In this document: one piece after another, positions 1-9,795 of the stretch
Layout: every line of letters starts with the position of its first letter
Position numbering within the stretch: the stretch's first letter is position 1
Virus record (IMG/VR): IMGVR_UViG_2711768052_000007
Coordinates: 1-9,795 of that record
Reading direction: 5' to 3' (one strand)
DNA length: 9,795 bases
DNA from: a virus
Taxonomy: Duplodnaviria; Heunggongvirae; Uroviricota; Caudoviricetes
Notes under the pieces: model-generated
Told to the model about the DNA's origin: nothing
The model's database searches: none
Seen by the model: the letters and a program-made list of their open reading frames with translations, nothing else
Program-made: the position numbers and the translations under genes

Positions 1-564
1 TCAACGACTGCGCTTAGCGTGGCGCTCCCAGTTTTCTTGCTTCGCCTGCGCCGTTTTACGTAGTGCGACGTAACACGCCCCGCTGCCGCCATGATGCGGT
101 AGCGCAGTGCAATATGCCTGAACATCATCAAATTCGGTCAGCCAGCGCGCCACATAGCTGCGGACAATATTGGCATGCGATTTATCATCCCGTCCTTTGC
201 CATGAATAATCAGCACGTTACGCAAACCATCAGCCATGGCTTGTTGAATGAAACTGAACATCATTTTGCGGCACTCTTCCACCGGCTGGCGCAAAAGATT
301 CAGGCTCGCCTGTTGCGGATATTTACCACTGCGCAGCTTATCCAGCACCCCATGTTGCAACCCTTCCCGCCGAAACTCCAGCGGCTGACTTAGTGGGATG
401 ATGTCGAGAAATCCGGTGGTGAGGAAATTATCAAGCTGCAGCGTGTCGATACGCTGCGGCGCACGTTGGTTACGCGTTGGATGCCAGTGGACATCGGTAG
501 CACGTTTCAGCGGCTGGACATCTTCCATGGCGTCAAGAAACAGCGATTTGTCGTCAAGGTTCAT
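1..564 (-). CDS. smrA: Smr-domain protein SmrA (YdaL), probable DNA endonuclease
   Basis: Complete 187-aa ORF (ATG at 564-562, stop at 3-1). The translation matches E. coli SmrA/YdaL as I recall it, including length. SD-like GGAGGATG lies upstream at about 568-575. Confidence 0.85.
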   Translation of the reverse strand: MNLDDKSLFLDAMEDVQPLKRATDVHWHPTRNQRAPQRIDTLQLDNFLTTGFLDIIPLSQPLEFRREGLQHGVLDKLRSGKYPQQASLNLLRQPVEECRKMMFSFIQQAMADGLRNVLIIHGKGRDDKSHANIVRSYVARWLTEFDDVQAYCTALPHHGGSGACYVALRKTAQAKQENWERHAKRSR

Positions 565-1297
565 GTTACATCCTCCCGCAATTAAGAGCGCGATATGATA
601 ACCAGACCGGGTCGGTCCAACAACGTATTACCCAAAATTCCAGTAATAAGTTCCAAATATTGCCGATATTTTAAGCAAAATGCTTATGCATGATTATTCA
701 TTCACGATATTTATAATTAAATGCGCATAACTTATTGAATTTAACCAACAAACATCGCTGCAAATAACGTTAAAAATCGCAAATTAACTACACCATTAAC
801 TACACCGTTCGGTGCACTGTATGCAACAATGCGGAACAAATAGACACAAGCGACGGGCTATACCGTTATCATTTTCCGGCTATCCGCCATGAAGCTGGTG
901 GATGATCACGGATAAACCGTTATGGAAGTCCCCATATCGGCATCATGCCCACCAGCGAGATTAGTTATCTGGTTGCTGATGGGAGGCTGACGAACCTCGA
1001 TGCTAGGGTGCGCAAAACTAGTGAGACCTTTTTTCTCTGCAACAGGCCCATAATTCGCGTTTTCTTTGTCTGCCGTAAGGTGGGGGATTTTTGGCGGATC
1101 CAGCAATGGCGCGGATTTTGTGATTTTTTATAGATAGACCTCATCTATCAATCCCGTGCACACCTTCCCAAAAAAAGTTTTCGAACCTGCGGCGATGAGA
1201 ACAAGGGTAGGCGGGCGGTCCCATAAGCAATGGAGTGTAGGGATTCCGATCCCCCTGGGGGTATTAAACGCCCCACCCTATTTAAATACCGTCTTTT

Positions 1298-1339
1298 TTG
1301 TCACTGGTTGTCACTCTCCGTCACGGTATGTCACCACAA
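1298..1339. repeat. Four GTCAC-containing units phased exactly every 10 bp (candidate integrase arm-type or Xis/AlpA-type binding array)
   Basis: GTCAC occurs at 1300, 1310, 1320 and 1330 (ttGTCACtgg, ttGTCACtct, ccGTCACggt, atGTCACcac), directly 3' of the last island gene. It resembles the lambda Int arm-type consensus (A/C)AGTCACTAT, recalled from memory. Confidence 0.4.
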
Positions 1340-1340
1340 G

Positions 1341-1625
1341 TTAACGTCGTAACCGTTCCGGCTTCTTCCACTGGTAAGTAATTTTTTCTTTCTCCCGGTA
1401 CATCTCTACGCGGCGACGGTATGACAACATCTCCAGAACTCTGGTTCGTATATCGCGCATATCCACGCCGTTAAGCTCAATACCATCACGGCGCATCACC
1501 TCAGCCACTACACGCGCGTAATTTTCGGCTATCACGCTGTCCGGCTGCGTGGCCTCCTGTTTGCCTGTTGTCTGGCTGGCTCCGGTAACGCGGCGAATTA
1601 TTTTGAGCATTTCGGCTTCGGTCAT
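1341..1625 (-). CDS. Hypothetical protein (94 aa) downstream of the small-terminase-like gene
   Basis: ORF with internal ATG at 1625-1623 preceded by GGAGG with about 8 nt spacing. The longer track ORF (to 1715) has no RBS. I do not recognise a family. Confidence 0.5.
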   Translation of the reverse strand: MTEAEMLKIIRRVTGASQTTGKQEATQPDSVIAENYARVVAEVMRRDGIELNGVDMRDIRTRVLEMLSYRRRVEMYREKEKITYQWKKPERLRR

Positions 1626-1770
1626 GGTTATGGCCTCCGTGGTGATGGGAAACAATGCCGTAATTGTGGCGGGTCCTTCTTGGAAAATGAAATACCGGGG
1701 TAGCCATACGCGCAATTCTTAACTGTTTATGAAAATTTTTCGAGTTCCACTCCCGGTTTTTTTATGACCT

Positions 1771-1791
1771 AACCAATTGATTAAATTGGTT
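1771..1791. promoter_or_regulatory. Perfect 8-bp inverted repeat AACCAATT-N5-AATTGGTT (operator-like)
   Basis: Read directly from the sequence, in the 215-bp gap between the terS-like stop (1840) and the next gene start (1625). Confidence 0.3.
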
Positions 1792-1839
1792 TTAAATATC
1801 AAATCAACCGGAAGTCTGACCAGTTGAGGGAAATGATGA

Positions 1840-2301
1840 TCAGGTGTCGTTTTGCCTGATTAATTTACGCTTCTTTTTGTTTTCATTTGTGTGTTTTTTA
1901 AGGCGTTTTAATGTCAGTTCTCGCCCGATCTCAATTCCCTGCGCTCTGCCCCTAGCCTGTGCGATCTCGTCCGGTGAATAACCGTAAATTTCCAGACCTT
2001 TATTAAATTTTTTTTCGTACTCTTGTTTGTCTTCTTCTTCACCAACCATACTCAACATGATTTCACGCGAATGCATAATGCAATCAAGCGGATGAAGTTC
2101 GCCAGTCATACCCAGTTCTTTGAGTCCTTCCTGTCCTCTTACCCAAAAAAGAACATGTCCTAACTGGTAGCGCCCCGGCTTTCCTTTATCTCCTTCAATG
2201 AATGGCAAACCGCGTTTAGTCCATGCCCTGACAGTTGTCCTGTCTACTCCAAATTGATCTGCTATTTCCTGCTGGCTTAAGAAAAATTCTTTTTCACTCA
2301 T
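1840..2301 (-). CDS. Terminase small subunit-like packaging protein (Nu1-type N-terminal winged-HTH, divergent C-terminus)
   Basis: The N-terminus (LSQQEIADQFGVDRTTVRAWTKRGLPFIEGDKGKPGRY) aligns with lambda Nu1 (KKQLADIFGASIRTIQNWQEQGMPVLRGGGKGNEVLY). The track ORF begins at a TTG (2337); the ATG at 2301-2299 (MSEKEFF) matches the Nu1 N-terminus better. The gene lies immediately downstream of a cos-like site. Confidence 0.7.
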   Translation of the reverse strand: MSEKEFFLSQQEIADQFGVDRTTVRAWTKRGLPFIEGDKGKPGRYQLGHVLFWVRGQEGLKELGMTGELHPLDCIMHSREIMLSMVGEEEDKQEYEKKFNKGLEIYGYSPDEIAQARGRAQGIEIGRELTLKRLKKHTNENKKKRKLIRQNDT

Positions 2302-2379
2302 AATGTTACCAATAATTACTGGTTGAATATTAATCAAGTGGTGGTGGTGTACCCTTTCCCGGAAAGCGTCATAAATAGC

Positions 2380-2440
2380 GCTTTTTTGCGCGTCTGCCGC
2401 CCCGTAACCTTTCGGATCGCCGGAAAGGACCCGTAAAAAA
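2380..2440 (-). other. Lambda-type cos site (cosQ-proximal sequence, cosN-like 12-mer, start of cosB)
   Basis: Minus strand reads ACGGGTCCTTTCCGGCGATCCGAAAGGTTACG|GGGCGGCAGACG|CGC...GCGCTATTTATGA. The lambda genome ends and start, as I recall them, read ...ACGGGTCCTTTCCGGTGATCCGACAGGTTACG|GGGCGGCGACCT|CGCGGGTTTTCGCTATTTATGA. The cosN-like 12-mer is at 2391-2402 (plus coordinates). Confidence 0.7.
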
Positions 2441-2456
2441 GCCGGATTTCTCCGGC
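2435..2456 (-). terminator. Putative intrinsic terminator after the 137-aa gene, overlapping the cosQ-proximal region
   Basis: On the minus strand, hairpin GCCGGA-gaaa-TCCGGC is followed by TTTTTT, 7 bp after the stop at 2463. It may instead be part of cos architecture. Confidence 0.35.
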
Positions 2457-2462
2457 CTTGTC

Positions 2463-2876
2463 TCAGATGGTTTTCAGTATGCGATCGATGTCGTCGTCAT
2501 CACCCGGATTTCTTCCATCGTATTCCATGCCACCTGACACTGCTTTGGGGCTGTGCATATCCATAAAGTTTTCAAAGGCTGCAGTAAGCTCCGGCGGAAC
2601 CTTCGGGCGTTCCTGCTCTATGGTCATGTTCAGGATGTCTCTTGCCCCTTCAACATCGATACAAGGAACATTCGCCATTGCACGCAACATCGGCTGATAT
2701 TCGGCTGCTTCATGAAGCGCCATAATCGCATCAGCGCGCGGCTTGTCCTGTTCTTCCAGTTTGTTCAATCGGTGTATGGCTTCGTAGGTTGATAAACCTC
2801 TGTCAGCCATTGCCCGCGCTTCGGCCTTAAATTTACTCGCCAGCGGTAGCGCCATGATCTCTTCATTGATTGCCAT
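2463..2876 (-). CDS. Hypothetical protein (137 aa, acidic C-terminus) between the decoration gene and cos
   Basis: ORF with ATG at 2876-2874 preceded by AGGGGGGA. The track ORF extends to 2930 but that extension overlaps the upstream gene and has no RBS. Family not recognised. Confidence 0.5.
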   Translation of the reverse strand: MAINEEIMALPLASKFKAEARAMADRGLSTYEAIHRLNKLEEQDKPRADAIMALHEAAEYQPMLRAMANVPCIDVEGARDILNMTIEQERPKVPPELTAAFENFMDMHSPKAVSGGMEYDGRNPGDDDDIDRILKTI

Positions 2877-2889
2877 CGTTCCCCCCTGC

Positions 2890-3225
2890 TTATCGTGCCA
2901 GCGGCTGAACGGATACGCCAGAACCCGCAAAGGCAGCGCATTTTTTCGCGTCAGTATCGACGCTCTCGGGCCAGTTAACGACGGCGATATTGAATATCCC
3001 CGTCTTGTAACACTGTGCAGATTTTTGTTTTGCCGTGTCCAGTGGGTAGGAGGTCAGATAAATGGCCTTGCCTGACTCCTGACCGCCCCACGCCTTAAAC
3101 TCGCCGTTCTCCGTCATCATCAGCGGGGTAAGCTCGGGAATAACTCCGGCATCAGCGGCAAAGTGTACCAGCGTAGTGGAAACCTGCTGTGTACCGGACA
3201 ATAATTCAACATATGGAACGCCCAT
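2890..3225 (-). CDS. Head decoration protein (lambda gpD-like)
   Basis: 111 aa. TPLMMTENGEFKAWGG...CYKTGIFNIAVVNWPES...KKCAAFAG aligns with lambda D (TPLMLDTSSRKLVAWDG...FYKSGTFRYEDVLWPEA...KRTAFAG). ATG at 3225 is preceded by GGGGGA. Confidence 0.8.
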   Translation of the reverse strand: MGVPYVELLSGTQQVSTTLVHFAADAGVIPELTPLMMTENGEFKAWGGQESGKAIYLTSYPLDTAKQKSAQCYKTGIFNIAVVNWPESVDTDAKKCAAFAGSGVSVQPLAR

Positions 3226-3236
3226 AAAATCCCCCG

Positions 3237-4292
3237 TTAACCAATTTTTACGGTAACAAATTTGCGGATATCTGCCGGAACCGGCTGTGGTGCGCTGTGC
3301 GTCTGCACGTATTCAATCGACGGATCGCCGCCCTCAATCCAGTTTTTCGGGTAGTACATGTTTCGCGTTGCGCCAGTTCTTACCGCTTCCTGATCCATAA
3401 TCGCGCCATAGGCCACCAGTCCTTTATTGCTGGTATTACCCAGAACAAGCAAATCAGGCTCAAGGAAATATTTTTCCGTTCCGTCGCCGTCAGTGTATTT
3501 ACCGGAATAAACGATAAGGGCCAGATCGCCAAGATAGCCTTTAAAGCTCACCACTTCGCCCAGGTTTTTACACGCCAGCTCTGCGGCGGATTCTGAACCA
3601 CGGGAAAGATCGTACAGTTCACGAAATTTTTTAAAGCTGCGTAACGTGCGCCATACCTCAACGCCCATAATCATGACGTTGGCGGGGCAACCTGCCTGAT
3701 CGGTGTACAGTTCGATGTCATAAATTGGATCGTGCGTTTCCTTGTCAGCCTCTGACCACTTTTTACCTTGTCCCTGCGTAATGATGTTTTTAGTCGGGAT
3801 TTTCCAGTCGATTTCGTATCGATTTATACCTTCGCCTTCAATGATGTTTTTCCCGGTCGTGACTGCATTCACCGCCAGCCATTCCACACGCGCTTTAATG
3901 GAATTTACCTGGCGGCGCATGTTGCCCGTAATCAGGCGCATACGACGGTATGTAGGGTCGTTAAGCTGTGCTGGATCTTCACCAGCCATGCGTATGATGG
4001 TTTTTGATGGATCGATTTCGTGTTTGGGTTTCATGTAGCCAGGGCGGATAGTGCTTGTTTCGTACCCTTTATCTCGCTGAACCTGGCTACCCACCATAGG
4101 CGAACAAAACGCCGACATGGTGACTTCTTCAATATCCAGGGTATCTAACATGATGTCCTGCGTGTTGAAGGTCGCCACGTTCGGGAAAAACAGCGACGTA
4201 AACAGCGGACTAAATTTAAAATCTGGAATATCCTGGCGATTCAGATATGTAAAAAGCTGATGCGTGTTAAGCGCCTGCGCTTTGTCTGTCAT
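3237..4292 (-). CDS. Major capsid protein (lambda gpE-like)
   Basis: 351 aa with conserved blocks shared with lambda E: FKFSPLF, PGYMKPKHE, EDPAQLNDPTYRRMR, VVSFKGYLGDLALIVYSGKY, VLGNT, YPKNW, GDP, SAP. The start ATG overlaps the upstream stop (ATGA). Confidence 0.9.
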   Translation of the reverse strand: MTDKAQALNTHQLFTYLNRQDIPDFKFSPLFTSLFFPNVATFNTQDIMLDTLDIEEVTMSAFCSPMVGSQVQRDKGYETSTIRPGYMKPKHEIDPSKTIIRMAGEDPAQLNDPTYRRMRLITGNMRRQVNSIKARVEWLAVNAVTTGKNIIEGEGINRYEIDWKIPTKNIITQGQGKKWSEADKETHDPIYDIELYTDQAGCPANVMIMGVEVWRTLRSFKKFRELYDLSRGSESAAELACKNLGEVVSFKGYLGDLALIVYSGKYTDGDGTEKYFLEPDLLVLGNTSNKGLVAYGAIMDQEAVRTGATRNMYYPKNWIEGGDPSIEYVQTHSAPQPVPADIRKFVTVKIG

Positions 4293-4498
4293 TGCTCACC
4301 CCCATGAGTCTGATTCATGCCAAGCGCAGCGCGTAAATGGCTGCGTACCATCCAACCAACTGACGGCTTCACCATGCACAACGGATCAAGGCCGACTTTT
4401 TTGCCTGCTTCTGCGTTCTCCTCAAAGCGCGCATTAAGTGCCGCGATAATATCGGGGCTGATGTATACGGATACACCGCCCAGCTTCTGTGTTCCCAT
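4289..4498 (-). CDS. Hypothetical small protein (69 aa), translationally coupled to the capsid gene
   Basis: ATG at 4498-4496 is preceded by AGAGGA, and the stop overlaps the capsid ATG. The upstream part of the track ORF (to 4564) has no RBS. Confidence 0.4.
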   Translation of the reverse strand: MGTQKLGGVSVYISPDIIAALNARFEENAEAGKKVGLDPLCMVKPSVGWMVRSHLRAALGMNQTHGGEQ

Positions 4499-4550
4499 AA
4501 ATGAAATTCCTCTTTGACTAAAAAACAAACATAACGAAAAATCAGTCATG

Positions 4551-4580
4551 ATTTTAATCATCATTGCATTTTTTGCAATG
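4551..4580 (-). promoter_or_regulatory. Putative sigma70-type promoter for the head/packaging operon with an overlapping inverted repeat
   Basis: On the minus strand, -35 TTGCAA (4578-4573), 16-bp spacer, -10 TAAAAT (4556-4551). The 7-bp inverted repeat CATTGCA-N5-TGCAATG (4562-4580) overlaps the -35 and spacer. Confidence 0.3.
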
Positions 4581-4675
4581 CAATTGACTATTATTGCAAA
4601 TCATGAAAGTATAATTCCGCGGTTTTACCTTGTATCGTAGAGTTGTTAGCATCAATCACGTTAACGGCATGAAAT

Positions 4676-4709
4676 CCCCCCGGAACCTCATCCCGGGGGG
4701 ATTTTTTTT
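4676..4709 (+). terminator. Strong plus-strand intrinsic terminator
   Basis: 8-bp GC stem CCCCCCGG/CCGGGGGG (4676-4683 / 4693-4700) with a 9-nt loop, followed by A and T8 (4702-4709). Confidence 0.6.
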
Positions 4710-4713
4710 GCGC

Positions 4714-4741
4714 ACAAAAAAGCCGTGAAAAATCCCGGCTT
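4714..4741 (-). terminator. Minus-strand intrinsic terminator after the SSB-like gene
   Basis: On the minus strand, hairpin AAGCCG-N10-CGGCTT is followed by TTTTTT. It lies about 15 bp downstream of the alternative-frame TAA stop at 4758-4756. Confidence 0.45.
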
Positions 4742-4755
4742 CTGTCACTCGTTGC

Positions 4756-5122
4756 TTAAAACGGTATGTTATCCCCGTACGGATCATCATTTCCCGCCTG
4801 TTGTTTTGCCCTGTTCAGTGCGTCAGTAGCCTGGCCCTGTTGACCTTTTTTGCCGCCCGGGCGCGCCGTTCTGGCCTGTCCACTGGCTTACCTGCATGTT
4901 ACCCGCCACGCTCACAAGTTCGCCTTTCTGGTGCTTTGCCAGTGCGTCGGCCTGTCTGCCAAACGCCAGGACGGATAACCACATCGTCGCCGTTCCGTCA
5001 TCTGCCTGGCTGCACGGCAGGGGAACCGCCATACTCGCCATCGCCATTTGTGTCCCTTTGCTGGTGGTCTTTAACTGCGGGTCAGCCACCAGCCGCCCGT
5101 AAGCCGCTATCTGTGCTGTCAT
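4756..5122 (-). CDS. SSB-like single-stranded DNA-binding protein with an apparent +1 frameshift near an A6 tract
   Basis: The track ORF (4823..5122) shows an SSB-like OB-fold pattern (GRLVADPQL..., WLSVLAFGRQADALAKHQKGELVSVAGNMQVSQWTGQNG versus E. coli SSB [40 protein letters not shown]). The +1 frame downstream of the A6 run (4846-4851) continues to ...AGNDDPYGDNIPF and stops at 4758-4756. IPF is the hallmark C-terminal tip of bacterial SSBs. Confidence 0.5.
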
Positions 5123-5370
5123 GATTCCACCTCTCCGGTTTTAACATTGATGGTTGTCACCTGTTCCGCTTCGGCAATCTCCCGTTCTGTCAGCGTGGCA
5201 AAGTTTGCTGCCGCCGTGGTCATGAATGCGCTTATCAGTTCGGGGTGTGCTTTCGCGTATCCTTCCCCGGCATGGCGGTCTATCGTTCTGATTGCCACCT
5301 TTAAGGCGTGCTCTGTCATGTCTAATGCGCGATATTTTGGCGCTGTCTTATCTCTGGTTTTTCTGGTCAT
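5119..5370 (-). CDS. Hypothetical protein (83 aa) between the origin and the SSB-like gene
   Basis: ORF with ATG at 5370. Its stop overlaps the SSB-like ATG (ATGA). No family recognised. Confidence 0.45.
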   Translation of the reverse strand: MTRKTRDKTAPKYRALDMTEHALKVAIRTIDRHAGEGYAKAHPELISAFMTTAAANFATLTEREIAEAEQVTTINVKTGEVES

Positions 5371-5379
5371 TCCTCACTG

Positions 5380-5573
5380 CTCCCCACTTTTACTACCCAC
5401 TTTTTGAAATTACCCAACGTCTCCCCACTTCTTTTTTTTGTGATTCTAACGTGATGTTTTTCAATGTATTTTTTATTCCCCACTTTTTGGGGTATATACA
5501 GGTGGGAAAGTGGGGAATCGCGTTTCAATTTTGTTAAATTCCCCATACTCCCCACTTTTACTACCCACTTTTT
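5380..5573. repeat. Iteron-type origin of replication candidate
   Basis: An identical 26-bp direct repeat CTCCCCACTTTTACTACCCACTTTTT occurs at 5380-5405 and 5548-5573. The short motif TCCCCACTT occurs at 5381, 5422, 5477 and 5549, with an inverted copy AAGTGGGGA at 5508-5516. An AT-rich spacer lies at 5431-5476. The region is immediately 3' of the Rep-type gene. Confidence 0.6.
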
Positions 5574-6987
5574 ACAGTGGGCGCACGTCATCACCGTCAA
5601 TAGCAATAACGCCATCACCTTCCAGCTTGTACAGCCAGCGCCGGAAGTGTTTCATCTCATACCCCAGCTTTTTCATATCATCGCGCAACAACGGAATTGT
5701 GCATTTATCGCCGCGCTGTGTGCGTGAACGGATACAGCCCCATAGCGCGGCATGATTCTCCGTCTTGTTCCCGGCTTCCTCGATGCGCTCCAGTTCAACG
5801 GGTGGGCGCGGTTTATCCACAACCACCAGCGACGTGATTAACTCCTTGTCAGCGTCGGTAAAAAGCTCCACCACACGTAAATCGTATGCAGCCTCTTTCA
5901 GTTCCTCCGCGTCCTTCATTTTGGTGCAGGAGATAACCAGGGCTTCACTGTCTGCACCTTCACGGCGAATACGGTATTCAGCGTCCAGAGATGCACGAAA
6001 TGCACTGGAACCACGCGCCCCCTTTGTTTCATCCTTGCCGGAATGGTGAACCACCAGCACCGTGGCCCCTGTGCGGCGTTTCAGTTCGTCACATCCACGG
6101 ATAAACGCCCCCATATCCCGCGCGTCATTTTCATCATTACCGCCAAAGCAACGCGCCAGCGTATCAAGAATAATCATGCGTACCGGTTTACCCGTTTCCC
6201 GTTCAACCTGGCGGGAAGCGATGACCATTTCATCAACATCAAGCGGGACTGCCGGAAAAATCGGGCGGTTTACCAGGTACAGATTTTCCACCCGTTCATC
6301 ATTAACGATTTCCCATGCCTTGATACGGCGGGGGACACCAATGCCACCTTCACCGACAACATACATCACCGAACCATGCGCCACCCTGCGGCCTCCCCAG
6401 TGACGGCCAGTGGCAACATGACACGCCCAGGAACACGCGAGGAACGATTTATAGGAACCGCTCGCGCCGTATGTGCTGCACAATGAATTAGCCGGAATCA
6501 CGCCCTTAACGACATAATCAAGCTGTGTGTCGTACCCTGCAGATCCAATGCTCATTGGTAGCGTGGTTTTTCGCTGGCTGTATTGCTCGTCAGTAAGTAT
6601 TTCCCCGCGCTCTGCCTGTTCGCGGATCCGTTGCAGGTAGTCGTGCCAGTTCTCCAGCTTCTGGCTGTGCATTCCATCAGGGTAATAATTCGCATCCCGT
6701 ACACCTGCCGCCGCCAGCTTTTGCCCGATAGCATTAATATTTGACGGCTTGATGTGGCCTGCCTTGTACAGCCGGACACAATAGCGACCATCGTCGATGA
6801 TTTTCAGGTCTGCCAGTTCGTCAAGCTGGCTGTCTCCAAGCCATACGGGTGGCACGTTGTCGCCAGCAAGTCGCCCGTCCTGTTCCTGCCATTGTTTCGC
6901 GTGCGCCCAGGCATCACTACCCGCAAAAATAATGACTTCGGTCATTTTGTCGTGTGGCTGTTTTTTTAAGTTCGGTGCCAGTTTCAT
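5572..6987 (-). CDS. Replication initiator / helicase-type ATPase (RecA-like P-loop NTPase with C-terminal winged-helix)
   Basis: 471 aa with a Walker A-like YGASGSYKSF, then MIILDTLAR and VLVVHHSGKDETKG blocks typical of RepA/DnaB-like satellite and plasmid replication ATPases. The C-terminus looks like a DNA-binding domain. The start ATG overlaps the upstream stop (ATGA). Confidence 0.75.
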   Translation of the reverse strand: MKLAPNLKKQPHDKMTEVIIFAGSDAWAHAKQWQEQDGRLAGDNVPPVWLGDSQLDELADLKIIDDGRYCVRLYKAGHIKPSNINAIGQKLAAAGVRDANYYPDGMHSQKLENWHDYLQRIREQAERGEILTDEQYSQRKTTLPMSIGSAGYDTQLDYVVKGVIPANSLCSTYGASGSYKSFLACSWACHVATGRHWGGRRVAHGSVMYVVGEGGIGVPRRIKAWEIVNDERVENLYLVNRPIFPAVPLDVDEMVIASRQVERETGKPVRMIILDTLARCFGGNDENDARDMGAFIRGCDELKRRTGATVLVVHHSGKDETKGARGSSAFRASLDAEYRIRREGADSEALVISCTKMKDAEELKEAAYDLRVVELFTDADKELITSLVVVDKPRPPVELERIEEAGNKTENHAALWGCIRSRTQRGDKCTIPLLRDDMKKLGYEMKHFRRWLYKLEGDGVIAIDGDDVRPL

Positions 6988-7283
6988 TTTTTACCCCTGA
7001 ATGCGTTAATCATGTTTTTCATTTTCTGAATATTTGCCCGTGCCTTTGCGTTGCTGGTGGGCTGTTTGCGTGGTGTGGCCTGTATCAGTGAAAAATCACG
7101 CCGGAACTGATAAACAGGCATCACGCAGTCATAACCGTACCCATCACGGCGGTAAGTAACGCACCGTCCCGCCACGCTTTTAATCGTTACCGTGCCGCCG
7201 TAGTTATCCCGGAAAATATCGCCGGGGCGGATTTCAGGCCGAGCGGGGCCGCTGGCAGTAAAGCCAGAATTTTTCTTTTTCAT
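6984..7283 (-). CDS. Hypothetical protein (99 aa, basic C-terminal tail), translationally coupled to the rep gene
   Basis: ATG at 7283 is preceded by AGAGGA. No family recognised. Confidence 0.5.
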   Translation of the reverse strand: MKKKNSGFTASGPARPEIRPGDIFRDNYGGTVTIKSVAGRCVTYRRDGYGYDCVMPVYQFRRDFSLIQATPRKQPTSNAKARANIQKMKNMINAFRGKK

Positions 7284-7288
7284 GGTTT

Positions 7289-7498
7289 TTATTCCTCTGC
7301 GCGGGTCTTGTCGTGTATTTCCATAACCGCGTTTAATTCATCAATAACCGGGGTTAACAGAGTGCTGAAAGCAGAAAATAAATCCCCCCCCCGTTCGGCA
7401 TGAACTTCGGTTAATTTAATTAATACCGCTTTCATTTCCAGTGCCCGGTTTAATGCATTCTCAGAATGAATAAGAACATCGAAAGGGATTTTATCCAT
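7289..7498 (-). CDS. Hypothetical small helical protein (69 aa) containing a G10 homopolymer
   Basis: ATG at 7498 overlaps the upstream gene end by 8 nt. A run of 10 C (plus strand 7383-7392) lies inside the ORF. No family recognised. Confidence 0.4.
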   Translation of the reverse strand: MDKIPFDVLIHSENALNRALEMKAVLIKLTEVHAERGGDLFSAFSTLLTPVIDELNAVMEIHDKTRAEE

Positions 7499-7957
7499 GG
7501 CTTACATCCTCCGTGAATTTTCTTCTGTACCGTGCCTCTGCCACATATTCAGCATAGTCCGACGCAATAATAAGAATATCGTTGCCGGTTCCTGAATGTT
7601 CAGCGGTTCCAATTAAAAAACATGCGGCCTTTATCAGGTCATTAACAGCCAGCAACGCATCGCCTGTATCATCCGGTGCGCCATCAAATTCCTGTTTCAG
7701 GGCATTAAAACGATCATCACGCATAACCCCCCCCCATTTTCACAATCAGCAATCAGGATGGCTTTGGCCTCATTCAGTGCCATATCAGCGGTAAGCTGTG
7801 CGTAGGCCAGCGAATGGGGGATTATTGCCCCTGTATACTCCGGCTCTCTGGTAATGTGTTTTTCTGCGGTTGCTGCCGTGCATGAAATATCAATCAGCGC
7901 GTGCATCAGCGTAGTGAGCGCGGCGGCTGCTGCGTCCGGACGTGGGTTATTGCACAT
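7491..7957 (-). pseudogene. Hypothetical protein split into two ORFs at a G9 homopolymer (frameshifted or phase-variable)
   Basis: ATG at 7957-7955 has a strong RBS (AGGAGGT, 5-nt spacer). The frame runs to a stop at 7699-7697 just after the G9 tract (plus-strand C9 at 7727-7735). The 77-aa ORF 7491..7724 continues in the +1 frame, and one extra G would fuse both into about 157 aa. Confidence 0.4.
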
Positions 7958-8249
7958 GGCGCACCTCCTGACGAATACGGGCGGCGAATACAGCGACACA
8001 ACCGGACGGGCAACGGTTACGCGCTTCGCGTTCTGTCCATGCGGTGACGTGGATGATTTGAGATTCTCCGGCACTCAGTGCCAGAAAACGCCACACAAAG
8101 GCCGTTTGTGTGTGCGCTAGGCGTGGGGTATGCTGTGTTCCAGCCATAATCGTTACCTCGTTTAACGGTTTGGTTAGAAGCCCCGTTACTGCTCCAACAG
8201 TGCGGGGCTTCGTCGTTTCAATTGCTGAATTGCATGTATCAGCCCTTGT

Positions 8250-8316
8250 GGTATTCAGATTACATTTTGGTGAATACCATTTCAAGTCTTTTTTGGTATT
8301 CACTTTTGTATTACAC
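8250..8316. promoter_or_regulatory. Operator-like repeats GGTATTCA(C) upstream of the ribbon-helix-helix gene
   Basis: GGTATTCA at 8250-8257; a perfect 9-bp inverted pair GTGAATACC (8270-8278) and GGTATTCAC (8295-8303); a degenerate copy GTATTACAC at 8308-8316. A candidate -10 TATTAAT lies at 8327-8333. Confidence 0.35.
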
Positions 8317-8346
8317 TGCATCCCGTTATTAATCGGAGGTGCAAAC

Positions 8347-8652
8347 ATGTCCACGAGTTCTGTTAACAATAAGTCACAGCAACTGAATGCCAGATTTCCA
8401 CATGAAGTAGTGAGTGGCATTGAGGCATCCCTACAGCCAGGGGAAACTAAAGCGAATTTTATAGTTACGGCTGTACGCGGTGAGATCGCCCGCCGCCAGG
8501 CAGAAGGAAGCGGAGAAAATCCCCTGGTTTCTTCGCTCGATGCACTGGCGCAGGTGGAAAAAATCGGAGTCAAAGCAGCCGAGGAGATCGGGCAACTCGT
8601 CACCGTCGCGCGTGAAGAACTCCAGCGCCGCAAGGCCAAAGAGCAGGAATAG
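8347..8652 (+). CDS. Ribbon-helix-helix (Arc/CopG-like) DNA-binding protein, putative island regulator
   Basis: 101 aa with a strong RBS (GGAGGTG, 5-nt spacer). The N-terminus (QQLNARFPHEVVSGIEASL...ANFIVTAVRGEIARR) fits the beta-strand plus two-helix RHH pattern. It is the only convincing plus-strand gene in the island. Confidence 0.55.
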   Translation: MSTSSVNNKSQQLNARFPHEVVSGIEASLQPGETKANFIVTAVRGEIARRQAEGSGENPLVSSLDALAQVEKIGVKAAEEIGQLVTVAREELQRRKAKEQE

Positions 8653-8656
8653 CCCC

Positions 8657-8675
8657 ACCGGAATTTTTTTCCGGT
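8657..8675. terminator. Hairpin between convergent genes (possible bidirectional terminator)
   Basis: ACCGGAA-TTTTT-TTCCGGT lies 5 bp after the RHH stop and abuts an out-of-frame minus-strand TAA. There is no long U-tract on either side. Confidence 0.3.
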
Positions 8676-9143
8676 TACGCTTTGCCCACCAGCCGCAAAT
8701 GTGGCATTGTTGGTGATGCGTTCAAGTTTGATTTGCCGTAATACCCACTGGCGACCCTTTGCGGTCGCCTTTGTTTTGCCTGTTATCCGGCAATTGTGGC
8801 GCTTCGCCACACGGTTGATATAATCCCACTGCTCAGATTCATTTTTTGCGCAGTAGGTTAATTGTTCGCAAGGGCGCTCCGGCAACGGGGCGCTTTTTGT
8901 TTTTATTAGTTTGTAGAAAACTGACTCAGAGATAATGCTCATATTCTGATTGCCGTCAGGGGGGTAAGTTAAATTTACTCCCTTTTCATCAAGCATCTGC
9001 AACGCTCTGGCGTTAATAATATTGGTTTCACTCCCGCCAATAAGGCCGGAAATAACCGGAATAATTTCAGCGAAATTTTGCAGATTCTGGTTTTCAGGCC
9101 GAACGAAGCCCCGCCCCTGTACAGGCGTATATCCAGTATTCAT
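8675..9143 (-). CDS. Hypothetical protein with a weak Bro-N/Ant-like motif; C-terminal frame unresolved
   Basis: ATG at 9143. The first 150 residues or so look protein-like, and ISESVFYKLIKTKSAP resembles the SESGLYxLIxRSRKPEA motif of Bro-N/Ant-type proteins. The in-frame ORF has no stop until 7947 and runs antisense through the RHH gene; a TAA in the +1 frame at 8677-8675 is the likely true end. Confidence 0.4.
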
Positions 9144-9195
9144 GGTTAAATCTCTGTATTAGTGGATGGGTGGCGGCTGTGTGCCGCCAGCCTGA

Positions 9196-9384
9196 TTAGT
9201 GAACTGCCTCGCGGCTGTCCTTCCATGCCAGAACTTCGGATAAAGACCAGCCAACGGAACGACCACCGAGTTTACGCCGTGATGGGAATTGTCCAGTCTT
9301 CTCCAGGCGATACCGACATGAGCGGCTCAGGCCTGTAAGTTGCTGACATTCTTTTTCACGTATAAAGCGATCTGTGCTTAACAC
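9196..9384 (-). CDS. alpA: AlpA-family (Xis-like HTH) transcriptional regulator
   Basis: The C-terminal 62 aa (VLSTDRFIREKECQQLTGLSRSCRYRLEKTGQFPSRRKLGGRSVGWSLSEVLAWKDSRE) matches the AlpA pattern. A GTG start at 9384-9382 is preceded by AAGGGGGA. The track ORF's upstream 36 codons are low-complexity and lack an RBS. Confidence 0.7.
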   Translation of the reverse strand: MLSTDRFIREKECQQLTGLSRSCRYRLEKTGQFPSRRKLGGRSVGWSLSEVLAWKDSREAVH

Positions 9385-9680
9385 AATTCCCCCTTTGTTG
9401 TTTCTTAAAGAGTCATTGGGTGGATTATTGGGTTGGGTTGTGTCGGATTGTGTCAGGGTGTTTATGGAATGGCAAACACTGGTGGCGGTCATTTTACAGA
9501 AGTGGGGGTAGTGAGAATAAAAATCCTTTTAATTCATTATGATGTAAAGGCATAAAATTCTGTTTTTACGCCTTTTTTACATGTTTTTAAGAGTGATTCG
9601 CCAATGTACAAAAAGCCAGTAAAACGACTGAAAATCAACTTTTTAGGGTGTCAGTCAGATGATAATCAAGTTTGTTCCAG

Positions 9681-9730
9681 ATTGTTCGCCGTTGTTCGTC
9701 GTGGTGTCTCGTTGTTTCACGTTGTGTCCG
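9681..9730. repeat. Five degenerate direct repeats phased every 10 bp (candidate recombination or regulatory protein binding array)
   Basis: attgttcgcc / gttgttcgtc / gtggtgtctc / gttgtttcac / gttgtgtccg, in non-coding DNA about 300 bp to the right of alpA. All three minus-strand frames hit stops within 60 nt of the window end, so no integrase 3' end is present. Confidence 0.35.
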
Positions 9731-9795
9731 TTCTAAAAAATCGCAAAAAAAATTATATTTCTCTGGCTATTGGCAGTGTGGTTACGTTTTCGTGA

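Follow-up and report, generated by a model that had tools for sequence, protein, structure and literature searches.

Gene content of the alpA-rep region

The DNA analysed here, referred to as the window, is a stretch of 9,795 nucleotides (nt) of a virus record assigned to Caudoviricetes (IMG/VR record IMGVR_UViG_2711768052_000007, positions 1 to 9,795), in which positions 6984-9143, the region under study, lie between the regulatory gene alpA and the replication gene rep. This region is probably a conserved regulatory zone (a "Bro" or immunity zone) together with the leader genes of the replication operon of an Escherichia coli phage satellite of the phage-inducible chromosomal island (PICI) type, with a plan like that of the left operon of satellite P4. 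Read along the minus strand, the order is alpA, an open reading frame (ORF) of 398 codons whose 3' end is an icd/kil-like gene, three small genes designated D, C and B, a DUF4222 gene and rep; the ylcI/ynfO gene is located on the plus strand, entirely within the 398-codon ORF (Table 1). According to the gene junctions read from the sequence, icd and D overlap by 11 nt, D and C by 28 nt and C and B by 8 nt, a gap of 5 nt separates B from the DUF4222 gene, and the stop codon of the latter overlaps the rep start by 4 nt (ATGA). Since the genes from icd to rep overlap or are no more than 5 nt apart, they appear to constitute one tight operon with the replicase.

Table 1. Positions of genes and sequence features between rep and alpA in the window.
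Feature	Position	Strand	Remarks
alpA	9196..9384	-	62 amino acids (aa), GTG start; PF05930, E 9e-18
398-codon eta-like ORF	7947..9143	-	starts 53 nt past the alpA stop, ends at the icd stop, in frame with icd
BRO-N remnant	8880..9020	-	matches residues 57-107 of a 192-aa BRO-N protein
Intrinsic-terminator-like hairpin and T run, ylcI-distal	8870..8907	+	kept in L001 and L002
Intrinsic-terminator-like hairpin and T run, ylcI-proximal	8750..8779	+	kept in relatives
ylcI/ynfO gene, candidate repressor	8347..8652	+	101 aa; NF041551, E 1e-16; phrog_6522, E 1e-46
Three copies of TGAATACCA, operator-like	8249..8303	.	repeat search; ylcI-icd intergenic
Leader hairpin and TCTAACCA	8171..8211 (hairpin 8177-8211)	-	about 25 nt 5' of the icd ATG
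icd/kil-like gene	7947..8147	-	66 aa; NF033153, E 5e-18; phrog_1743
Gene D	7697..7957	-	86 aa here; phrog_5146, E 2e-24
G9 tract, 3' end of D	7727..7735	-	2 nt before the C ATG
Gene C	7491..7724	-	77 aa; phrog_24341, E 8e-37
Gene B, intact	7289..7498	-	69 aa; phrog_2196, E 1e-7
G9 tract inside B	7384..7392	-	encodes Arg-Gly-Gly
DUF4222 gene	6984..7283	-	99 aa; PF13973, 85.3 bits (gathering threshold 27)
rep, RepA-family helicase, end of the packed block	5572..6987	-	471 aa; name given by the Prokaryotic Genome Annotation Pipeline (PGAP) in L002

An initial annotation had listed five small ORFs in this region, namely genes of 99 aa and 69 aa, a split gene of about 157 aa, a ribbon-helix-helix (RHH) gene and a Bro-N-like gene, and had recognised no family except the RHH one. 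The 99-aa and 69-aa ORFs, the two ORFs around a G9 tract, the YlcI/YnfO gene and a BRO-N-like start are all present, but the 66-aa Icd-like gene had been overlooked, and matches were found to DUF4222 (PF13973), Icd-like and YlcI/YnfO families as well as to phrog_2196, phrog_24341, phrog_5146 and phrog_2512. The Icd-like protein scores 64.9 bits against NF033153 (cut-off 25) and YlcI 60.3 bits against NF041551 (cut-off 30). The DUF4222 protein combines an SH3/Tudor/KOW-like beta-barrel with a basic C-terminal helix. The product of alpA is a homologue of the satellite master regulator/excisionase and the counterpart of P4 orf88/vis (46% identity to orf88), and PGAP annotates its 62-aa form in a 96%-identical locus (L001). 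Profile searches, which the initial annotation had proposed together with structure-based ones, yielded known families for the small genes. A fold search with a model of the D-C fusion gave generic helical hairpins only (E≥1). PDB sequence searches with DUF4222, YlcI, the D-C fusion and Icd returned nothing meaningful.

The 398-codon frame and the embedded ylcI gene

The 398-codon ORF runs without a stop to position 7947 across the BRO-N remnant, the ylcI terminators, the antisense of ylcI itself, the operator-like repeats and the leader hairpin, and its last 66 codons are the icd/kil-like gene, which has a ribosome-binding site and an ATG (position 8147) of its own. The reading of the ORF as a chance artefact of antisense sequence was rejected in view of the open contexts in relatives, the stop-free ylcI alleles and shuffling. 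The icd frame extends upstream without a stop for 237-761 codons in 57 of 106 distinct contexts, the other two frames mostly closing within 2-35 codons. Several of the remaining contexts also have a long ORF on the same strand, which stops about 110 nt short of icd or runs into its start in another frame. On the antisense strand of 20 distinct full-length ylcI alleles (mean synonymous divergence, dS, 0.74), the frame that the long ORF uses is free of stops in every case, against 2-8 stops in each of the two remaining frames for most alleles. The probability of encountering no stop, as estimated from dinucleotide shuffles, is 0.0008 for positions 9143-8653, a value to be read with the caveat that part of this segment was once BRO-N coding in that frame, and 0.014 for positions 8346-8148. 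Synonymous resampling gave 0.17 for the ylcI antisense, and the product of the three values (0.0008 x 0.17 x 0.014) is approximately 2e-6.

A comparable frame is found in P4, which is annotated in the order orf88 (AlpA-like), "cI" ORF, epsilon, orf151, orf106 and alpha. The 65-aa ORF that follows the cI RNA of P4 and the Icd-like protein of the window both belong to phrog_1743. The frame of this P4 ORF is open for 152 codons upstream, and an ATG at 8761, which overlaps the orf88 stop, gives an ORF of 197 codons; this ORF is eta, with kil nested within it. According to the findings of Forti et al. (1999) that are relayed in PMC10111431, Kil is a shortened version of Eta, and the late promoter upstream is the only one from which Eta is translated; this translation blocks termination, leading to read-through to the downstream genes. 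The published anti-termination role of eta (PMC10111431) offers a ready explanation for the stop-free frame of the window, and in our reading, by analogy, the long frame would likewise be kept for the act of translation.

It seems rather unlikely that the frame is kept for the activity of a protein instead, that is, that the 398-codon ORF encodes a functional member of the Bro network which ylcI merely overlaps as an antisense gene. P4 eta and its PICI counterparts are indeed treated as Bro-network genes with domain swapping (PMC10111431), one relative (L073) harbours a single ORF with an intact BRO-N at the N-terminus and Icd at the C-terminus, and two divergent types of the long ORF have the N-terminal peptide M-x-x-x-Y-T/S-P-x-x-GRGFVRP in common. 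In the window, however, what the initial annotation had taken for a Bro-N-like gene is BRO-N-like sequence in the 5' part of the ORF that starts at 9143: BLASTP identity reaches 69% over 51 aa, the N-terminal core and the C-terminus are gone, Pfam Bro-N (PF02498) has no match at E≤1 in the long ORF product, and matches to PHROG anti-repressors over residues 48-83 are weak. The middle of the ORF consists of translated terminators, the antisense gene, operators and the hairpin, giving a low-complexity sequence (rich in Ser, Cys and Arg) which is wholly different between alleles. In addition, the 398-aa protein is not predicted by gene callers, and no exact match to it exists among 15 billion collected proteins. 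The long ORF may have a role at the protein level as well.

The alleles of YlcI are hypervariable over residues 1-35 and conserved in the C-terminal part. Both short (about 57 aa) and long (101 aa) versions exist, in alleles including those of L102, L005, L018 and L004, and the difference corresponds to a 45-residue helical insert (AEGSGENPLVSSLDALAQVEKIGVKAAEEIGQLVTVAREEL) ahead of the common basic tail QRRKAKE. The three copies of TGAATACCA, a motif of 9-10 nt, make two inverted pairs, and different palindromes occupy the same site in other alleles. The variability of the N-terminus, together with the adjacent allele-specific palindromes, suggests that YlcI is an element-specific repressor, as far as sequence comparison can indicate. 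The initial annotation had rightly placed a gene here, but its assignment to the RHH family rests on a match to PF07704 below the cut-off (E 0.013) and on a beta-alpha-alpha pattern recognised by eye only. Directly after the ylcI stop, positions 8653-8675 form a perfect 7-bp hairpin (ACCGGAA-TTTTT-TTCCGGT), which is kept in L001 and L002 and is situated upstream of the two stronger plus-strand terminators.

The leader hairpin comprises a 9-bp stem and an apical stem, after which the conserved TCTAACCA follows. It was encountered in 37 distinct versions in 116 loci, with compensatory double changes in six of the eight consensus pairs. Meanwhile, loci L016, L021, L027, L033, L067 and L148 carry isrK and C4 RNAs directly upstream of icd and inside the long ORF, which is immunity of the P4 type. 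The 5' sense flank of the hairpin is A-rich, so that a U-rich tail would follow the hairpin on the opposite strand; such a tail fits the terminator of a sar-like antisense transcript, roughly 80 nt long and spanning the start of icd, which is offered as a lead only. The Rfam model of P22 sar matches the hairpin only, with 14.7-16.8 bits (gathering threshold 43), and P22 was not recovered when phages were searched by blastn with the leader. Hexamers resembling a -10 element are located on the plus strand in the first icd codons (TATGCT here, TGgTATGAT in other alleles). In L148, L033, L068 and L016, several leader modules stand in tandem upstream of icd within one open frame of 480-820 codons, each module being composed of the hairpin, TCTAACCA and the start of an icd allele, with isrK and C4 coming last. 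These tandem modules suggest in-frame modular recombination in the Bro zone.

Conservation of the small genes and variation of the G tracts

Eighty Rep-anchored loci were drawn from IMG/VR, where 323 Rep relatives are present, and the 60 loci with more than 2.5 kb upstream were used for comparison. Icd and DUF4222 are encoded in all 60, D in 54, and C and YlcI in 48 each. The interval from C to DUF4222 is constant at 200-237 bp and always holds one small gene; this B slot is occupied by two allelic forms, whose C-terminal halves appear similar by eye. The distance from alpA to rep amounts to 1.9-3.5 kb. Of 5426 complete E. coli genomes, 1784 contain parts of the region, and exact copies of the proteins are found on 24 contigs for D, 219 for C, 62 for B, 100 for Icd and 169 for YlcI. 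The ratios of non-synonymous to synonymous divergence (dN/dS; pairwise Nei-Gojobori, many alleles) are 0.37 for DUF4222, 0.30 for Icd, 0.27 for D, 0.21 for C, 0.21 for YlcI (20 alleles), 0.13 for Rep and 0.07 for AlpA. Values of 0.21-0.37 indicate that the small genes are under purifying selection and, hence, are real genes. Relatives differ in their alleles (mosaic, with 50-100% identity) and not in whether they carry cargo; D, C, B and DUF4222 are core early proteins.

These data bear on the proposal of the initial annotation that the small genes are accessory cargo with a novel function in helper interference or anti-phage defence, which we now regard as improbable. The location as such agrees with the satellite literature, where a dynamic "Bro zone" between the integration and replication zones (PMC10111431) and accessory genes between integrase/regulator and primase (PMC10085698) have been reported, but the content and order of the genes are conserved in the 60 Rep-anchored relatives. 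Likewise, the P4 gene epsilon, which is directed at the helper, occupies the equivalent position in its operon, and D, C and B, to which no function is assigned, have very diverse alleles (50-95% identity); the fixed synteny, the constant size of the slot and the overlap-linked packing with rep nevertheless speak against cargo, the gene-averaged dN/dS stays below 0.4 with no sign of diversifying selection, and PADLOC-DB 2.0 gave no match for nine proteins of the region at E≤0.1. Taken together, synteny, slot size, packing and the PADLOC result leave the reading as accessory or defence cargo unsupported. Given that epsilon, which acts in helper derepression, lies at the same position of the P4 operon, D, C or B may by analogy still play a helper-directed role.

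Homology of D to P4 epsilon was rejected: a BLAST similarity of 21 aa was judged to be due to chance, the hhalign probability was 0.8%, and PF25738 was detected in 0 of 20 members of the D family. D, C and B were not retained as paralogues either (no BLASTP similarity, hhalign probability 0.16%), nor was a relationship between DUF4222 and P4 orf151 (24% identity across 50 aa, E 0.37). In AlphaFold2 models, D is a two-helix hairpin (helices 9-37 and 39-73; predicted local distance difference test score of about 80), and so is C, with helices 98-116 and 119-152 in the model of the D-C fusion.

As the initial annotation had pointed out, two of the genes carry poly-G tracts; the two G9 runs are the only homopolymers of at least 7 bases in the window. 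Among 84 sequences (83 loci and the window), the D/C tract consists of 7, 8, 9, 10 and 11 G in 23, 36, 18, 4 and 3 cases, respectively, and in the Rep-anchored sample maximal G runs of 4, 6, 7, 8, 9, 10 and 11 were counted 3, 6, 14, 20, 8, 4 and 1 times. Loci with identical 600-bp flanks can differ in the length of this run. With 8 G, D has 79 aa, ends in ...GGYA followed by the stop and has the ATGCGTGA overlap with C. The same YA/HA ending is found in D relatives without a G run, indicating that 8 G is the ancestral frame. With 9 G, as in the window, D ends in LCVMIVLMP in place of its last two residues, which results in a protein of 86 aa, and with 7 or 10 G D and C are fused into a protein of 154 or 155 aa (phrog_2512; at least 120 database clusters). 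Clustering at 50% showed that most relatives are single proteins of 70-90 aa, either D-type or C-type. The exact 9-G form of D occurs on 24 contigs, and its cluster has 203 members, almost all of them 86 aa among the members listed. Since the relatives are mostly separate and the fusion is tied to 7 or 10 G, the "split gene of about 157 aa" of the initial annotation is better understood as two genes, separate across the family, that slippage fuses at times.

Even with another gene upstream, C has a G-rich run ahead of its start, and the D/C tract probably doubles as the Shine-Dalgarno sequence, i.e. the ribosome-binding site, of C, judging from the sequences compared. The tract in B ranges from 5 to 9 G in relatives, and lengths of 6, 7 and 9 in a CAG context truncate B to 47-52 aa. 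At both tracts, differences in homopolymer length among close relatives shift the reading frame. The G tracts are thus slippage-prone by prediction, the D/C tract toggling between the predicted states of separate genes (8 G), D with an extended tail (9 G) and fusion (7 or 10 G). An interrupted form of the G tract would read GGAGGTGGC.

We give little credence to the view that the poly-G variation and the "split gene" merely reflect decay or sequencing errors in a broken gene of 155 aa. One must bear in mind that homopolymers are prone to sequencing errors, that some B alleles are frameshifted at the tract, and that the fused 154/155-aa forms are common in databases and have a PHROG of their own. 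However, distant relatives without the G tract encode D and C separately, the 8-G frame restores both the family-wide YA/HA ending and the ATGCGTGA overlap, and D as well as C is under purifying selection. A length spectrum of 7-11 is too broad for errors in consensus sequences, the 9-G form of D recurs, and the G-rich run found before the C start behind a different upstream gene fits a ribosome-binding role.

Proposed regulation, flanking genes and known systems

By analogy with P4 eta/kil, helper induction would raise transcription from the alpA promoter, and ribosomes translating the long ORF would spare approximately 1.2 kb of otherwise untranslated RNA from premature termination. Read-through would then reach icd, D, C, B, DUF4222 and rep, and would also oppose the transcription of ylcI. 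In the resting state, as the anatomy of the locus would have it, YlcI, with its RHH-like hypervariable N-terminus, might bind the three TGAATACCA repeats and hold a proximal promoter of the icd operon off. The Icd/Kil-like protein, to go by its family name, might block host division after induction in the way P1 Icd does via FtsZ. It is a tentative and, at present, rather doubtful proposal that all of this forms one phase-variable early operon, in which the 1.2-kb antisense frame is kept for translation, ribosomes shield the alpA transcripts and silence ylcI head-on, and the G tracts provide three forms of D/C. A sar-like antisense RNA that would start from the 5' end of icd and end at the 8177-8211 hairpin is a lead only to a further element.

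Least probable of all is a toxin-antitoxin-like addiction pair stabilising the island, in which the RHH protein would repress or neutralise the division inhibitor: YlcI does resemble weakly a family of post-segregational-killing transcription factors (PF07704, E 0.013), expression of P1 Icd or of P4 Kil is toxic (PMC11897509; PMC10111431), and ylcI and icd are neighbours with operator-like repeats between them, but the two genes are divergent and 200 bp apart without an antitoxin-toxin bicistron, icd heads a six-gene operon ending in the replicase, relatives control icd by C4/isrK RNAs, that is, by immunity and not addiction, and no significant match to PADLOC or toxin-antitoxin families was obtained.

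Several observations weigh against translation-driven control of an eta-like frame and against its repression by YlcI. Roughly half of the distinct contexts lack a far-reaching open frame upstream of icd; there the long ORF stops about 110 nt short of icd or lies in another frame. In the window, the Shine-Dalgarno sequence of the long ORF (AGAGA) is weak, and 53 nt separate the ORF from the alpA stop, which makes coupling to alpA less obvious than in P4. Neither C4/CI nor isrK/seqA RNA was found by Rfam searches of the whole window at E≤1 and of positions 8100-8400 (301 nt) at E≤10. Across the gap, the minus-strand RNA has a modest excess of C over G, too weak to be used as a Rho-loading signal. 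As for YlcI, the association between operator and allele is confounded by physical adjacency, a PDB profile search gave no RHH structure, and a sigma-70 scan detected no promoter in the ylcI-icd intergenic region, the transcripts, promoters and terminators discussed here being predicted ones. Moreover, the sampled loci are mostly from E. coli and share segments by recombination and are therefore not independent.

On the whole, it is rather likely that the region adds new features to the PICI operon, namely a stop-free eta-like frame with antisense ylcI, a covarying hairpin that takes the place of C4 RNA, and G tracts that remodel D, C and B. PICIs are very common in E. coli, parts of the module being present in a third of complete genomes, and their early regulation has been known only as "AlpA activates". 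The present reading ties the PICI Bro zone to the anti-termination logic of P4 eta/kil and points to a protein-based variant in which an antisense-embedded YlcI with allele-specific putative operators stands in place of the CI RNA. If the proposed mechanism is true, one device would deliver the replication genes and silence the repressor, and the population would hold three D/C protein forms. For annotators, the Icd-like gene is the tail of a longer frame that automatic pipelines miss, D and C are two genes with the fusion as a product of slippage, and defence mining should not treat the region as a hotspot.

Beyond the region, the integrase gene adjoins alpA just outside the window, as seen in L001. 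The late side of the window encodes a single-stranded DNA binding protein (SSB; frameshifted), the major capsid protein, a head decoration protein and the small terminase, according to ORFs and PGAP names. The SSB gene (4823-5122, minus strand) is truncated, its 99-aa ORF corresponding to the first 86 residues of a 141-aa SSB (98% identity) and diverging thereafter, which points to a shift of the reading frame around codon 87; in L001, too, PGAP marks this gene as frameshifted. Between the capsid-side genes and SSB, positions 4669-4741 and 4655-4709 contain a strong GC-rich hairpin (AAUCCCCCCGG...CCGGGGGGAUU) with A/U runs on both strands, which looks like a bidirectional terminator and gave only chance-level Rfam matches (ncr1175, rli38). 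Upstream of alpA, the RNA-sense (minus) strand of positions 9401-9500 is C-rich and G-poor (34% C, 10% G per 100 nt) and overlaps the 5' extension of a 98-aa alpA ORF, an extension that carries no PGAP annotation. In L001, the gene of the small RNA McaS/IsrA (13287-13382) is located directly past the integrase, between int and abgR, so that the island sits between smrA and the mcaS-abgR region; the span from smrA to int is about 11 kb.

Among known systems, the left operon of P4 has the same succession on one strand of an AlpA/Vis homologue, a long ORF ending in frame as an Icd/Kil gene, small genes and a replicase. The window differs from it by the absence of C4/CI and isrK/seqA RNA, by the length and content of the long ORF (398 codons versus 197, with antisense ylcI, terminators and a BRO-N remnant), by D, C, B and DUF4222, which are unrelated to epsilon, orf151 and orf106, and by a replicase that is a RepA-type helicase and not an alpha primase.

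Gram-negative PICIs follow the plan Integration-Bro-Replication-Late, and C4 and isrK RNAs lie inside some of their Bro genes (PMC10111431). In keeping with the EcCICFT073-type islands (PMC10111431; Fillol-Salom 2018, as cited), the region has alpA beside int, a Bro zone, helicase and SSB genes, and capsid, decoration and terS genes; as in a PICI late zone, the window holds capsid-related and terS genes and is devoid of tail and lysis genes, and C4/isrK are found in the Bro zones of relatives, as that article reports. In contrast, the antisense ylcI, the stop-free frame, the covarying hairpin and the G tracts go unmentioned in PMC10111431, the text of which contains no mention of YlcI, DUF3950, DUF4222, "antisense" or "opposite strand".

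Icd of phage P1 binds FtsZ and blocks division (PMC11897509). The immI operon of P1 (c4 RNA, icd, ant1/2) resembles the region in that an Icd-family protein (NF033153) is the first gene translated under immunity control; unlike immI, the window has neither c4 RNA upstream of icd nor ant downstream, and degenerate BRO/Ant-like sequence lies upstream instead. At contingency loci of Neisseria and Haemophilus, phase variation is driven by homopolymers. The tracts described here are similar in being long G runs within or at the ends of coding regions, whose length varies between near-identical relatives and alters the products. Unlike at contingency loci, however, no length of the D/C tract abolishes either protein; instead, the tail of D changes or D and C become fused.

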